Of a DNA stretch of 64,000 bases, positions 21,001-57,000 are shown piece by piece. The position numbers were made by a program. Origin of the DNA: an uncultured Planctomycetia bacterium (GTDB taxonomy: Bacteria; Omnitrophota; Gorgyraeia; Taenaricolales; CAZCCH01); contig CAZCCH010000006.1 in assembly GCA_964497315.1 (NCBI GenBank), positions 11,830 to 75,829 on the forward strand, read 5' to 3'. Within the stretch, counting starts at the first letter, position 1. Each line of letters opens with the position of its first letter.

Positions 21001-24000
21001 ATGTATATCACTCCGGGGATTATCAGCTGAAGGTAGGTATGACAGTAAAAGATATAGTAGATAAGGCCGGGGGTGTGTTGCCGGATACATATATGACTCG
21101 CGCTGATCTCGTCCGCATAGATAAAGGAGGCGGTAGGAAGGTCATATCCATAGATTTAAATGAGGTCTTAAAGGCTGATAAGAAGGAAAACATCTTACTT
21201 GAAGAATGGGACCAGTTGAGGATATATACCAATTCAGAGGTTATCCCCATGAGGGTTGTAGAGATAGAGGGGGCTGTGAATAAACCCGGGCGCTATGAGT
21301 TGACCAATGACATGATGGTATCTGATCTTATATTTAGGGCAGGGGGGACTAAGGAAACAGCCGTTTTAGAAAATGCAGAACTCTTCAGAATAATACCTGA
21401 GGGTACCTCTACCGTTATGAATATAGATTTATTTAAGATCATTCACAGAAAGATGGGGTCAGCTGACTTCATCCTACAAGAGGGGGATCATTTATACGTT
21501 AGGGAAAAGGCAGCCTCAACACAAAAAACGATTATAACCTTATCAGGTGAAGTTAGATACCCTGGAGAATACGTAGCGCAAAGAGATGATAAACTGAGTT
21601 CTATAATTGAACGCGCAGGGGGTTTTACTAAAAAAGCCTTTTTGCACGGAGCAGTTTTTAAACGCCAATCCCTAAAGAAGATTCAGCAAGACATGTTAAA
21701 GCGGCATCTTGAAAGTGAGCGCAATGCCCTCCTGCAGGAACAGTCGTCTCTGGCTGGAATTAGCAGTAGTTCTGCACAGTCTGATGCCAGGATGGAGCTT
21801 TTGCGATTTAGAGAGAAGATGCTTGAGTCCCTTGATAATATTGAGGTGCCAGGTAGGATGATAATAAAGTTGGATGAACTGGAGTTTTTCAAAGGCAGTG
21901 AATATGATATTTTCTTAGAAAATGGAGATTCATTGTATATACCTACTGCCCCTTCCTCAGCACAAGTTGTAGGAAACGTATATACGCCTACCGCCATCAC
22001 ATTTAAAGAGGGGGCCGGAGTTGATTATTATCTATCCAAGGCAGGGGGTGTGACCAAGAGTGCTGATGTAAAAAAGATTTATGTAATCAGGGCAAATGGA
22101 GAAACAGTATCTAAGTTTGCCAGGGCTTTAAAGGTAGGAAGGGGAGATACGATAGTTGTGCCAGAAGCATTTAAGTATAAAACACCTACAGGTTTAATAG
22201 TCAGGGATACGGTAGGGGTTTTATATCAGATTACACTCGGTGCGATTGCCGTAGCAGCATTAGATTAGGAATAATGAAGAAGTTTTTAAATAGAGATATT
22301 TCTTTCGGGCTAGCTATTTTTATCTGTGCGCTTATTTTGAGATCTTTAATTATTGTTACAACTTACGTAGAACCTCAAAGTGATGGTGAGTACGATAATA
22401 ATATAGCCCTGAATATACTTGCTGGCAATGGTTTTGACCTGGAGGATTCTTCATATTCAAGACCGCCTCTTTATCCCTTGTTAATCGCTGGCATATATAA
22501 GCTCTTTGGAAATAATAACTATTTAGGATTAAGGTTGGCGCAATCAGTAGTGAGTTCATTTATGTGCCTACTTATTTATCTTATTGGATTGCGCCTTATG
22601 GGTAGATCTATAGGGGTTATCGCAGGGAGCATCGCCTCAATCTACCCGGTTTTTATCACAAGCTGTAGCATCTATAGGATCGAATGCCTTTCCAGTTTTC
22701 TGCTTACCTTGGTTACCTGGTGGATCATCAAGATACGCGAAGACTTAAGTTATCTGCGGGTGTGCTTGCTTGGTATATTATTAGGTATCATGGCCTTGGT
22801 TTCAGGAATGATGGTGCTTTATATAATATTTTTGCTAGCCGCAATGGCATGGACAGGATATTTTAGGCAGTGGCCGTTAAAGAAAACAATAGCGTTTATC
22901 CTAATCTTATTTCTATGTTTTGCGCTTCCCATTGCCCCATGGGCTATCCGCAATTGGAAGGTATACAACGCATTTGTCCCTATTTCTACCCAAGGCGGAT
23001 ATATGTTGTATTTATCTTATAAGCCGCCAGGGGGTAAGCTATTCGGGTTTAATACGATAGATGAAACAGTCCTATATGCGAAGGCGTTAAATTCTAAGAT
23101 AGAAACCAGCAAATATCTCACAAGAGCTACTTTAAGGTTTATAAGACAAAATCCCCTTAAGGTGGCAAAACTTGAGGCCTTGAAATTCTTCTTTTTATGG
23201 TCACCGTTTGACTGGGAGGTATTAGGTATTAATACAAAGGGAGTTTATAACTTTATGTATAGCTTTATATTTCCGTTTTTTCTTATAGCCTTCATACGCC
23301 TCAAGAGGGGATTTGAAAAATTTTTACCTATCTATTTGCCTATAATCTATCTGCAGGTTGTGACGCTTTTGTTTTATGGATCAGCGCGCTTCAGGATACC
23401 GATGGAACCATTCTTAATAATCTTTGCATCTTTTGGGATATATCAAGGATACCAGAATTTCCGAAATAAATACGTATTTAAAGTTCTGCTATCTATTTGG
23501 TTGCTTGGAAACGTATGGTTTTATTTTTATTCTGATCAAACCAAGGTATTTGCCAGGTCACTATTTGAATTGGTGGGCTTATGGTGAAAAAGAATTTTCA
23601 AATATACATAGTTTTGATATTTGCAATTTTAGTAGGGCTTATATATGTGGCCCCGGATGTTGCATTCCGCCATGAATTAGGCAGTGGTTTTAAAGGCATG
23701 TACCTTACAGGCATGCTTGATGAGACTTATTACTTAAGCAGGATAAATGCAGTTTATAAGGGAGATTATAGATTAGGCAACTGGGGTATATACGAACACA
23801 GAAATGACCCAATTGTACACCCGGCACCTTTAGAAATTATAGAAGCATCAACAGGTAAATTATTAGGTCTGACAGTAGGGGGCGTGGATACACTGTTTAC
23901 CTTTGTTCTGCCGATTTGTCTTTTTCTTTTGATGTTTCTTTTTATATCTAAGGTGTCCGGTTCTTTTAGAACGAGTCTTGTAGGTGCATGTGCAATTTTA

Positions 24001-54000: not shown

Positions 54001-57000
54001 CCATATAGCGAATGTAATAAAAGAACACAGGCCAGACAGAGTTATTCATATGGCAGCGTTGCCTATAGCAGATTTGTCCTTTATTCACTATGAGGAGACA
54101 ATAAATACCATAGTATTGGGAACGACAAACCTACTTACCTGCATCAAAGATGCAGGGTTTGTGAAGCGGTTTGTCTATACATCATCAAGCATGGTATATG
54201 GTGATTTTGAATATGAACCAGCAGACGAGACTCATCCAACAAGACCCAAGGATGTTTACGGGGGAACAAAGTTGGCCGGTGAGGTACTTACAGAATCCTT
54301 TGGGCGTAGATATGGCGTTAAGTATACCATTATAAGACCATCAGCAGTCTATGGACCAGGCGATGTTAACAGACGCGTAACGCAGATATTTTTGGAAAAT
54401 GCCCTGGGAGACAAGGGGCTGGTTGTACGCGGCGGAGGAGAGAACAAGCTAGATTTTAGCTTTGTAGAAGATGTAGCAGATGGATTTGTTCGCGCAACTA
54501 TGTCTGAGAAAGGAGAAAACGAGATTTTTAACATAACCAGGGGAGAATCGAGATCACTGACGGAATATGCCAATGAATTGAAAAAGTATTTTCCCAGCCT
54601 CAAGGTTTCGTTAGAACCCATGCCTTCCCATAGGCCAAAGAGAGGGACGCTTGATATCACGAAGGCAAAGACCTTGCTTGGTTACAACCCAAGGTACAAC
54701 CTCGAGGATGGAATAAAAAGATACGTAGAATGGTTTCAGCAGATCTATCAGGACCTTAAGTAGGAATGGAGATGTAGTATGGACAAAATACCTTTATGCA
54801 AGGTTTCTATAGCGGATAGCGAGATAAATTTAGTAACCGAAGTCTTAAAAAGCGGATGGCTGACACACGGGCCGAAGAATACCGAATTTGAAAATTCCTT
54901 TGCAGAATATATAGGGGTAAAGCATGCAATTTCTGTAAATTCCTGTACTTCTGCTTTGTTTTTGGCGTTGATTGCCAATGAAATCAAAGGAGAGGTTATA
55001 TTACCCAGCTTTACCTTTGTAGCCTCTGCCAATGCCGTTGTAACTGCTGGGGCAACTCCTGTTTTTGCAGATATTGAATATGATACATGCAATATCGACC
55101 CGGCTGACATAAAGAAAAAAATCACTGCAAACACAAAAGCGATAATGGTTGTGCACTATGCGGGGCAATGCTGTAATATGCCTGAAATCAAACAGATTGC
55201 TAAAGAATACAACCTGTTTCTAATAGAAGACTCCGCTGAGACGATAGGTGGTGAATGTAAAGGAAAAAAGAGTGGTAGCTGGGGCATGGGATGTTTTTCC
55301 TTTTTCCCTACTAAAAATATAACTACGGGTGAAGGCGGGATGTTTACTACAAATGAAGACAATTTAGCGCAAAAGGTTAGAGGTCTGATAGGCCATGGTA
55401 TATTGAAATCTACAAGCCAAAGACAGGTATTAGATAGGCCATGGTATAGAGAGGCTGCCTATGCAGGGTACAACTTCAGGATGAGTAATTTACTAGCTGC
55501 AATAGGTGTGGAACAGATGAAAAAACTTGATAGTATGAATGAAGCTAGGAGAAAAAATAGCCAGATGCTTAAAGGATTTTTATCTGATATACCTAACATT
55601 GACCTACCTGTGGAAAGACAAGATTGTAAACATGTCTACCAGATGTTTGCTATAAAGGTAAAAGGCATAAACCGAGATGAAACAGTTATAAAATTGAAGT
55701 CAAAAGGATTAGATGCCTCTGTCCATTTTGACCCCCCCGTGCATAAACAAGCTGCCTATAGGAATTACGCAACAGGACACCTAAAAATAACCGAAGATGT
55801 AGCTAGAACGACTATTACTCTACCTATGTTTCCGGACTTAACGCAAGAACAAGTCCATTTTATCGCTGAGACAGTGCGGAAATGCGTATAAGTTAGTTTT
55901 ATCCCAAGGAGGGATTTACAAATGAAGAAGGTAGTTGTTTTTATACCGTGTTTTAACGAAGAAGAAACCATTGAGGAAGCTATAACCAAAACCAAGGAAA
56001 TTTACCGGGATTCTACAGCAAAAGGGTTCAAGGTGGAGATTTTAGTAGTAGATGACGGCTCGACAGATAAAACCTTGAAAAAGGCAAAGGCCCTGGGTGT
56101 AGATAAAATAGTATCTCACCCTACCAATCTAGGCCTCGGGGCTGCAACAAGGACAGGTATGCAGACTGCCTTTGAAATGGATGCCGATGTCCTTGTGAAA
56201 CTGGACGCAGATTTACAGCATGACCCAAAAGATATAGAGAATGTGGCAAAGCCCTTACTGGAAGATAAGGCAGATATTTGTTGGGGTACGCGTTTTAAAG
56301 GGGGAATGCGATATAAAATGCCCCTCGTCCGGATGTTGGGAAACCATTTTTTTACATTCCTGATGAATTGGTTAACAGACTATCAGATATCAGATGGCCA
56401 GACTGGCATGATTGCTTTTAATAGGAGATATCTAGGTATTTTTGAAATTATGGGAAATTACAATTGCCCCCAGCAGCTTTTAATAGATGCTAGCTTTAAA
56501 CACATGAGATACACAGAGGTCCCCACTGTTTTTCACCAAAGGACAACCGGGTCTTCGTTTGTAACATTTAAATATCCATTTAAGGCAATGTCTTATATAG
56601 CATGGGTATTAATTTATGCAAACCCTTTGAAAAGCTTTAGCCTCATAGGATTAACCCTTATAAGTGTTTCCCTTGCAATATTTCTAGCGTGGATTATTGC
56701 AACATCATTCAGGCTTTATGACATTACAAGCTATTTGCCTACCAATACCTGCCTTCTCTTATTTTTAAGCGGAGTACAGGCAATATTTTTTGGGTTGCTT
56801 GCAGATATGATTATGAGGAAGAGGAATAAATAATGGCAATAAAGCCTAAAATAGTTTTGATATATCCCCCGCTGGGTTTCGTAGGTTCCTTTGAGGTGAA
56901 CATACCCGTGAGCCTGCTCTATCTTTCTGCTGATGTGTGCAAGATGGGCATGGATGTTGAAATAATAGATTATCGCATAGAAAAAGATCCACAGGGGTTA

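Follow-up and report, generated by a model that had tools for sequence, protein, structure and literature searches.

A 64,000-nucleotide stretch from an uncultured Planctomycetia bacterium (placed by GTDB in the Omnitrophota; assembly GCA_964497315.1, contig CAZCCH010000006.1, positions 11,830 to 75,829; hereafter "the window") contains the core of a single-strand surface-glycan operon, at least 46 kb long, from an uncultured Gram-negative bacterium. We give a probability of roughly 0.6 to the reading that this operon encodes several extracytoplasmic glycosylation modules within one Wzx/Wza/Wzi glycan locus, with sugars tailored by radical S-adenosylmethionine (SAM) enzymes or methyltransferases. 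The window encodes six GT-C-fold proteins (named here by their start coordinates: 22274, 23581, 29843, 39383, 49317, and 50649), three GT2 enzymes of the Dpm1/ArnC type that would load sugars onto polyprenyl phosphate ("loaders" 25247, 40781, and 55922), and eight B12-binding radical SAM enzymes. All 51 large open reading frames (ORFs) of the window lie on the + strand; from 17683 to 63804 no gap between genes exceeds 39 bp, many genes overlap, and GC content is even across the window (0.36 to 0.43). The multiplicity of GT-Cs, loaders, and B12-radical SAM enzymes in a single operon is unusual.

Three of the GT-Cs (22274-23587, 437 amino acids [aa], consisting of a membrane domain only; 39383-40762, 459 aa; and 49317-50645, 442 aa) are full-length paralogs that share 26 to 28% identity (BLASTP E values of 1.6e-33, 3.8e-32, and 1.5e-41, the last for 39383 versus 49317). 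They score 51, 29.2, and 58.9 bits, respectively, against Pfam PMT_2 (PF13231), whose gathering threshold is 26.1 bits, and 49317 also matches STT3 (24.3 bits). All three carry a loop motif (variants RPPLY..IYKLFG, RPPGY..IYRLFG, and RVPGY..IYLIFG) and a C-terminal motif (RFRIPMEPF, RFRVLIEPY, and RFRLPLEPF), and further positions are invariant among them (PW..RN, T.GG, and W.PF). A fold search was needed for this trio because its sequence profile found just one marginal match in the PDB (AglB, E = 0.027). The AlphaFold model of 22274 (35 homologs; predicted local distance difference test [pLDDT], 93.4; predicted template modeling score [pTM], 0.93) has exclusively GT-C enzymes as its best 38 Foldseek matches in the PDB (TMq up to 0.58), including STT3/AglB/PglB, Pmt4, ArnT, ALG9, AftB, Emb, and AftA. 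The trio family conserves three candidate catalytic residues: D37 is an acidic residue following the first transmembrane helix (TM1) and is invariant among close 22274 homologs, E137 is the glutamate of a "TE" pair lying close, in the alignment, to AglB's second acidic motif, and R372 is the arginine of the RFR motif. In a genome scan that used an alignment of 9 closer sequences, the closest genome-encoded relatives of 22274 were found in ten Candidatus Omnitrophota metagenome-assembled genomes (MAGs) with 32 to 41% identity; beyond Omnitrophota, relatives were found in Glassbacteria, Gemmatimonadales, and Planctomycetia. Together with the named homologs of 23581 and 41490, most of which also come from Omnitrophota, these relatives make that phylum the probable source of the DNA.

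The remaining three GT-Cs are more diverse. Directly after 22274, the gene at 23581-25284 encodes a 567-aa membrane protein with about 11 helices and a C-terminal soluble domain, which has no Pfam or NCBIfam match and whose homologs are annotated as hypothetical. Its AlphaFold model (pLDDT, 84.6) is most similar to AftA (8if8_B; E = 6.7e-8, TMq = 0.57), followed by STT3, DPY19, PglB, and ArnT, and its top 20 Foldseek matches are all GT-C enzymes. We also considered a Wzy polymerase or a transporter for 23581 and rejected both, as its significant fold matches are to GT-C only and transporters appear with E values above 0.04 and TM-scores of about 0.1. A glutamate in the first loop (E48), again a candidate catalytic residue, is invariant across the 23581 family. 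A profile search through 1.84 billion representatives found 1087 cluster representatives of this family with E ≤ 1e-30. Three longer family members are fusions: P0235 has an N-terminal GtrA/DPMS transmembrane domain on its 23581-type domain, and P0306 and P0335 have an N-terminal GT2 that scores as loader type over generic type. These fusions tie the 23581 family to the other two components of the three-component glycosylation systems discussed below, and a family of more than 1000 cluster representatives that has no Pfam model can now be filed as GT-C. The protein at 50649-52280 (543 aa; PMT_2, 48.3 bits; PMT, 31 bits) has transmembrane segments that end near residue 392 by hydropathy and a C-terminal extracytoplasmic domain, and the GT-C candidate at 29843-31201 (452 aa; PMT_2, 37.9 bits) was not listed in the first-pass annotation of this DNA. 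Structure models were made of 22274 and 23581 only, and GT-C membership of 29843, 39383, 49317, and 50649 rests on Pfam PMT_2. All six proteins have acidic residues after TM1, as located in the sequences, and these may be the structural equivalents of ArnT D55 or PglB D56. By analogy with known GT-C enzymes, they would transfer sugars from a polyprenyl-phosphate donor at the outer face of the membrane.

These results largely agree with the first-pass annotation as far as the membrane proteins are concerned. ORFs are present at every coordinate that it gave; 22274, 39383, and 49317, which it had called GT-C paralogs, are confirmed as such by full-length BLASTP, PMT_2 scores over threshold, and the 22274 fold search; and the two "large membrane proteins" that it placed next to them (23581 and 50649) both prove to be GT-C, by fold model and by Pfam PMT_2, respectively. 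The loop and C-terminal motifs it quoted for the trio are present, but only in approximate form.

The three loaders are candidate polyprenyl-phosphate sugar synthases judging from their sequences. Loader 25247 (25247-26047; 266 aa, no transmembrane helix, motif DGDAQYD; GT2, 91.9 bits) overlaps the 3′ end of the 23581 gene; its best NCBIfam match is ArnC (84.8 bits, under cutoff), and its best PDB relatives are ArnC (9hwj, E = 1.8e-17), DPMS, and GtrB. Loader 40781 (40781-41485; 234 aa, soluble Dpm1 type, motif DADGQHDP; GT2, 115 bits) is closest in the PDB to DPMS (5mlz, E = 6.7e-26), then to ArnC and GtrB, and has AglJ, PpgS, and PgfS as best NCBIfam matches. Loader 55922 (55922-56833; 303 aa, motif DADLQHDP; GT2, 89.9 bits) has the ArnC/GtrB architecture, with a C-terminal hairpin of transmembrane helices (residues 241-259 and 276-294) that is found in no other loader of the window; its best PDB relatives are DPMS, ArnC, and GtrB, and its full-length NCBIfam matches are AglJ, PgfS, and ArnC. 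Forms of Dpm1 and Ppm1 that lack transmembrane helices exist. Against the ArnC, AglJ, PpgS, and PgfS equivalogs, the three loaders reach at best 85, 75, and 108 bits, under cutoffs of 325 to 529 bits. A fourth GT2 (44432-45418), with three or four C-terminal transmembrane helices, was considered as a Dpm1-like loader and rejected in favor of a generic GT2: in the PDB it is closest to 5tze, GalT1, and chondroitin synthase, and in NCBIfam to EpsD, TIGR04283, and MftF. Loaders and GT-Cs adjoin each other in two units, 22274-23581-25247 (overlapping genes) and 39383-40781 (18-bp gap); 29843, 49317, and 50649 have no adjoining loader, and 55922 has no adjoining GT-C.

For two of the loaders, the next gene downstream encodes a B12-radical SAM enzyme. 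The gene at 41490-42995 starts 4 bp after loader 40781 and is itself followed by a second B12-radical SAM gene (42996-44435; HpnJ, 228 bits), and the start of the gene at 56833-58335 overlaps the stop of loader 55922 by 1 bp. The enzymes 41490 and 56833 are reciprocal best matches among the radical SAMs compared, with 32% identity. Loader 25247 is followed instead by two class I SAM methyltransferases (26028-27651, with starts at 26028 and 26737; Methyltransf_11/23, 67 to 104 bits). The other B12-radical SAM genes are at 35024-36493, 37724-39379, 46508-47893, 47897-49342, and 52289-53749, and a SPASM radical SAM gene, not of the B12 type, is at 45390-46520. All eight B12-type proteins combine the Pfam B12-binding (PF02310) and Radical_SAM (PF04055) domains and have the CxxxCxxC motif (8/8), and all score under the NCBIfam cutoffs for the characterized subfamilies with which they were compared (BchE, HpnJ, HpnR, PhpK, KedN5, and others). 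The 41490 family has about 2000 relatives, with named members from Omnitrophica, Patescibacteria, Micrarchaeota, and Nanoarchaeota; as an aside, these are lineages of very small, probably host-attached cells.

The pattern continues past the end of the window. On the same contig (L112:10957-15395), we found genes for an ArnA-N-like formyltransferase, a 242-aa Dpm1-like loader, a B12-radical SAM enzyme (HpnJ, 260 bits, under the cutoff of 577.6), and a deacetylase-like protein, the last a 491-aa ORF with no Pfam match and a weak VimE-like NCBIfam match (75.8 bits, under cutoff). Across the full locus, three of four loaders are thus directly followed by a B12-radical SAM gene and the fourth by two methyltransferases. 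A single operon combines six GT-Cs with three or four loaders and with eight or nine B12-radical SAM enzymes. The order of GT2, radical SAM, and deacetylase genes past the window echoes HpnI/HpnJ/HpnK.

We compared gene order among 97 non-redundant related loci (868 genes), in which ORFs were labeled with hidden Markov models built from window proteins, and obtained expected counts by shuffling labels within loci (n = 5000). A loader is followed by a trio-type GT-C in 16 cases (7.1 expected; observed count reached in 4/5000 shuffles), by a B12-radical SAM gene in 7 (2.7 expected; 42/5000), and by a class I methyltransferase in 10 (5.3 expected; 144/5000), and a trio-type GT-C is followed by a 29843-type GT-C in 8 (2.6 expected; 4/5000). 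None of the reversed orders was enriched in these 97 loci; a B12-radical SAM gene precedes a loader twice (2.8 expected), and the order GT4 to radical SAM, with 1.0 expected, does not occur. Loader, radical SAM, and GT-C genes are consecutive in two loci (L011 and L013). One orthologous group of radical SAM enzymes (47 to 63% identity), which includes the enzyme encoded just past the window, has a loader directly upstream in all members except L040, where the radical SAM gene is near the contig edge.

A second sample consisted of four neighborhoods (L114 to L117) found by homology to 41490 alone, and in two of them (L114 and L117) a loader is directly upstream of the queried homolog. In L114, the loader overlaps the radical SAM start, and a PMT_2 gene is convergent. 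L117, from Omnitrophota, runs DegT, PMT_2, epimerase, methyltransferase-loader fusion, radical SAM, PMT_2, PMT_2, and radical SAM; the fusion itself (L117:4587-5996, in an Omnitrophota MAG) joins a Dpm1-like GT2 to a class I methyltransferase. L115, from Patescibacteria, has DegT, a loader, a 123-aa EamA-like membrane protein, and PMT_2, a complete three-component set, and also a run of two radical SAM genes, a loader, a methyltransferase, and PMT_2, and after these another loader with a radical SAM gene next in line; this last loader lies upstream of another B12-radical SAM gene, not the queried 41490 homolog. L116, a short contig from Micrarchaeota, has its radical SAM gene amid genes for an NTP-transferase, an epimerase, and DegT, with no GT2 in 8 kb. 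The pairing of a loader with a downstream B12-radical SAM gene thus recurs in Omnitrophota and Patescibacteria loci.

The modular organization proposed in the first-pass annotation needs revision in light of these comparisons. That GT2 and GT-C enzymes form a module is backed by the enrichment of loaders directly before trio-type GT-Cs and by the fusions of 23581-type domains with GT2 or GtrA, but the four-fold repetition of a GT2 plus GT-C pair reduces to two adjacent units with no DNA-level repeat, and of the four GT2s described as Dpm1/ArnC-like, 25247, 40781, and 55922 qualify and 44432 does not. Each module was also said to be bracketed by B12-radical SAM genes. The link to radical SAM enzymes stands, in the directional form of loader to radical SAM; bracketing fails for the first unit, as 22274-23581-25247 is flanked by Wza and the two class I methyltransferases. 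We considered recent duplication of a repeat cassette as the source of the array and rejected it, since the paralogs are only about 27% identical and no DNA repeat exceeds 53 nt. The longest direct repeats in the window (30 to 53 nt) encode conserved motifs, and with no repetition at the DNA level, the apparent repetition of the array therefore reflects ancient paralogy rather than amplification. The paralogs are also nearer to orthologs elsewhere (up to 42% identity for 22274 and 74% for 41490) than to their window neighbors, and the array is therefore better described as an assembly of old, diverged modules.

From what is observed here, namely, the protein families and their folds, the conservation of acidic and arginine residues, the paralogy, the conserved order of genes, and the fusions between domains, we propose the following scheme. 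The enzymes encoded right after each loader would tailor the sugar on its route: the B12-radical SAM enzymes 41490 and 56833 for loaders 40781 and 55922, and the class I methyltransferases 26028 and 26737, adding O- or N-methyl groups, for loader 25247. Methylation is the most likely tailoring reaction; by analogy with GenK, GenD1, and Fom3, class B radical SAM enzymes would methylate unactivated carbons. The lipid-linked sugar would then be flipped across the membrane, and the six GT-C-fold enzymes would transfer sugars, at the periplasmic face, from lipid-linked donors to the glycan while it grows or once it is finished. In this scheme, we infer which lipid is the donor and which sugars it carries, the radical SAM reaction and the stage of its substrate, and the acceptor. 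Precedents exist for several of its steps. In the Gtr, Arn, Csb/YfhO, mycobacterial, and GT136 systems, a cytoplasmic loader makes a polyprenyl-phosphate monosaccharide that a GT-C uses outside; lipid-linked sugars can be modified by epimerases before flipping; and in another such system the proposed flippase is of the MATE type (PMC11127046). The radical SAM enzymes HpnJ and Cds have been proposed to act on lipid-linked sugars (PMC13459092).

Several known systems resemble the locus in part, among them GtrA/GtrB/GtrC, CsbB/GtcA/YfhO, and PPPRS/MATE/GT136, three-component systems in which a loader and a GT-C are encoded side by side, as here, and in which the GT-C acts outside the cytoplasm, transferring its sugar once assembly of the main chain is complete (Kelly et al. 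2024, PMC11127046). Unlike them, the window has no dedicated small flippase, with the MOP protein 32463 as the sole candidate; one operon combines six GT-Cs with three or four loaders, where those systems have one of each; and the window encodes a B12-radical SAM enzyme or methyltransferase directly after the loader, an arrangement not described in the literature searched. GtrA/GtrB/GtrC glucosylate O antigen. The Arn pathway (Ugd, ArnA, ArnB, ArnC, ArnD, ArnE/F, and ArnT), which adds aminoarabinose to lipid A, matches the locus in logic and in several families, namely, UDP-sugar dehydrogenase, SDR, DegT, formyltransferase, a GT2 loader with two C-terminal transmembrane helices, and GT-C. It differs in that no ArnD or ArnE/F was recognized here, that the locus is of the capsule export type, and that radical SAM follows loader. 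Sugars are modified at the lipid-linked stage by ArnD in this pathway and by DprE1/E2 in mycobacteria. The mycobacterial GT-C arrays (Emb, AftA-D, PimE, and Mpt, with Ppm1 and decaprenyl-phosphate arabinose) likewise pair many GT-Cs with few polyprenyl-phosphate donors, the donor being modified while lipid linked (DprE1/E2), and include AftA, to which 23581 is structurally most similar. They belong to another phylum with another envelope and share only about 12% sequence identity, and here the genes are in one operon with Wza and Wzi.

Two further comparisons concern the radical SAM enzymes. GenK, GenD1, and Fom3 are class B radical SAM enzymes that C-methylate sugars or sugar-like substrates. 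They share with the window enzymes the N-terminal B12-binding domain, the CxxxCxxC core, and a sugar-biosynthesis context, but the window enzymes do not belong by sequence to any characterized subfamily, and their substrates may be lipid linked. In HpnI/HpnK/HpnJ (hopanoid cyclitol ether) and Cds (calditol synthase), a GT2 puts a sugar on a lipid, and a radical SAM enzyme is proposed to rework this lipid-linked sugar (PMC13459092). For several radical SAM enzymes of the locus, including 42996 and the enzyme past the window, HpnJ ranks with the best NCBIfam matches, but the scores are under the HpnJ cutoff, there are no hopanoid genes here, and a GT-C could not use a ring-contracted product as its glycosyl donor.

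Some of our results weigh against a locus of loader/GT-C modules with radical SAM tailoring. Six of the eight B12-radical SAM genes in the window do not adjoin a loader, and a B12-radical SAM gene is within 5 kb of just 15 of 111 trio-type GT-C genes, which makes the radical SAM enzyme an optional add-on. The shuffle counts overstate significance because the loci compared are related to one another, and gene order cannot separate radical SAM action on a nucleotide sugar from action on a lipid-linked sugar or an assembled repeat unit. No protein scores above the cutoff of any characterized equivalog, and specificities are hence not assignable. The overall assembly route is also incomplete, because neither a Wzy_C polymerase nor a WbaP/WecA-type initiating phosphoglycosyltransferase was recognized in the window or in the 4.5 kb past its end, and no small dedicated flippase of the GtrA, SMR, or EamA type was found among window ORFs.

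The alternative that best withstands the data, which we nevertheless consider rather unlikely, is that the B12-radical SAM enzymes tailor nucleotide sugars or a cytoplasmic lipid-linked repeat unit locus-wide, and that their adjacency to loaders is a by-product of dense islands of sugar-modification genes. The six radical SAM genes that do not adjoin a loader follow genes of other kinds (GFO oxidoreductase, GT4, radical SAM, SPASM, and GT-C), and the Micrarchaeota neighborhood, with its radical SAM gene amid nucleotide-sugar genes and no GT2 in 8 kb, is as a by-product would predict. GenK and GenD1, characterized class B enzymes that modify sugars, act on soluble substrates, and this too counts in favor of a by-product. 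Yet the adjacency is directional, with loader to radical SAM well above its expected count and the reverse order slightly below, and in one orthologous radical SAM group the gene directly upstream stays a loader from organism to organism. The start and stop codons of the window pairs overlap or are 4 bp apart, and in L117 a methyltransferase is even fused to the loader that precedes the radical SAM gene.

We find it improbable that the Dpm1-like GT2s instead initiate oligosaccharides on polyprenyl monophosphate, as AglJ does, with GT4 and GT2 enzymes extending the chain in the cytoplasm and some GT-Cs taking the role of Wzy or WaaL, be it as polymerases, ligases, or en bloc transferases. Such an archaeal-style pathway would explain why neither Wzy_C nor WbaP/WecA was recognized, and it agrees with AglJ as the best NCBIfam match of 40781 and 55922 (75 and 108 bits) and with STT3, AglB, and PglB as top structural matches of the trio model. 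However, the AglJ scores are far under the 325-bit cutoff, the trio GT-Cs are without the large extracytoplasmic domain of oligosaccharyltransferases, the initiating enzyme and Wzy may be elsewhere in the genome, and in L011 the same modules are accompanied by a Wzy_C gene. It is likewise improbable that the GT-Cs decorate lipid A or its core (ArnT-like) or envelope proteins (PMT-like) in a locus that merges unrelated envelope-modification systems, since the Arn-like set of two UDP-sugar dehydrogenases, SDR, DegT, an ArnC-architecture loader, and a formyltransferase just downstream, the Kdo-transferase domain protein with which L009 and L010 begin, and the LptD gene upstream in the window are offset by scores of 27.6 bits against a cutoff of 567 for ArnT (equivalog NF009784, matched in the window by 49317 only), 53 to 85 against 529 for ArnC, and 293 against 631 for ArnB, and by an unbroken array of genes with Wzi, Wza, Wzz-like, and Wzx. 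As all of these scores are under the equivalog cutoffs, we rejected orthology to ArnT, ArnC, and ArnB.

Glycosylation by loaders and GT-Cs through lipid-phosphate sugars is well known; a conserved pairing of a loader with a downstream B12-radical SAM gene is apparently undescribed, and we did not find such coupling in the literature on B12-radical SAM enzymes with undecaprenyl or polyprenyl sugars or O antigen. If the modules operate as we propose, the pair constitutes a defined two-gene system that may reveal new chemistry, such as C-methyl sugars on surface glycans. The module is present in Omnitrophota, Patescibacteria, and perhaps DPANN; as these lineages probably live attached to other cells, their surface glycans may matter for host recognition. 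More tentatively, and we would not yet expect it to hold, these lineages could share an undescribed, widespread branch of glycosylation in which cobalamin radical SAM enzymes modify polyprenyl-phosphate monosaccharides by C-methylation or rearrangement; if true, it would provide donor sugars deliverable by GT-Cs only and would diversify the cell surfaces of ultra-small, host-associated lineages.

The rest of the array encodes export and conventional sugar functions. It is headed by Wzi (17683-19254; Caps_assemb_Wzi, 271.6 bits), followed by a 999-aa Wza-like protein (19269-22268; SLBB, 178 bits in 6 stretches; Poly_export, 61.6 bits), which is unusually long and combines a single Poly_export domain with six or more SLBB domains. 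A MOP-superfamily flippase of the Wzx/MurJ type (32463-33965; Polysacc_synt_3, 88.6 bits; MurJ, 32 bits) is the sole flippase candidate in the window, and this Wzx-like protein, Wza, and Wzi are present despite the absence of a recognized Wzy or initiating enzyme. No full-length chain-length regulator was recognized from 17683 to 63804, where we found only a short Wzz-like protein (223 aa, starting at 31228; Pfam scan). A GT4 gene (36511-37752) lies between two B12-radical SAM genes, and an SDR dehydratase/epimerase (53789-54763; Pfam) and a DegT aminotransferase (54779-55891; PseC, 337 bits, and ArnB, 293 bits, both under cutoffs) precede loader 55922. Among the Pfam matches of the window are also two UDP-sugar dehydrogenases, RmlA/B/C/D-like genes, and several SDR epimerases, all of them for nucleotide sugars. 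In the assembly and export array itself, Pfam identifies a hexapeptide acetyltransferase, three or four GT4s, four GT2s, three class I methyltransferases, the DegT aminotransferase, an AsnB-type amidotransferase, and a GNAT protein, in addition to the eight B12-radical SAM enzymes, the one SPASM radical SAM enzyme, and the six large membrane proteins. The Arn-like set extends over 53789-56833, 8804-10096, and 14192-15493 (two UDP-sugar dehydrogenases, SDR, DegT, and the ArnC-architecture GT2); with all scores under equivalog cutoffs, its composition suggests that a 4-amino sugar may be delivered via a lipid-phosphate carrier.

Upstream of the array, Pfam matches in the window include two GGDEF proteins, a ROK kinase, a transaldolase, and LptD. 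The two GGDEF diguanylate cyclases are neighbors (9-2395), one of them has a GAF domain, and the pair could tie cyclic di-GMP signaling to surface glycan production. A NodU-like carbamoyltransferase gene is followed by small membrane ORFs of the SxtJ family and DUF5989 (6152-8557). Near the downstream end, the ORF at 61640-62851 has a mechanically called TTG start that overlaps the preceding gene by 97 nt; public gene calls give 370 aa, and the true start is probably an internal ATG. Proteins of the window recur identically on several metagenome contigs of up to 80 kb; the 318-aa protein encoded at 62848-63804, between a GT4 and a formyltransferase, has no Pfam or NCBIfam match and is unchanged on 16 contigs.

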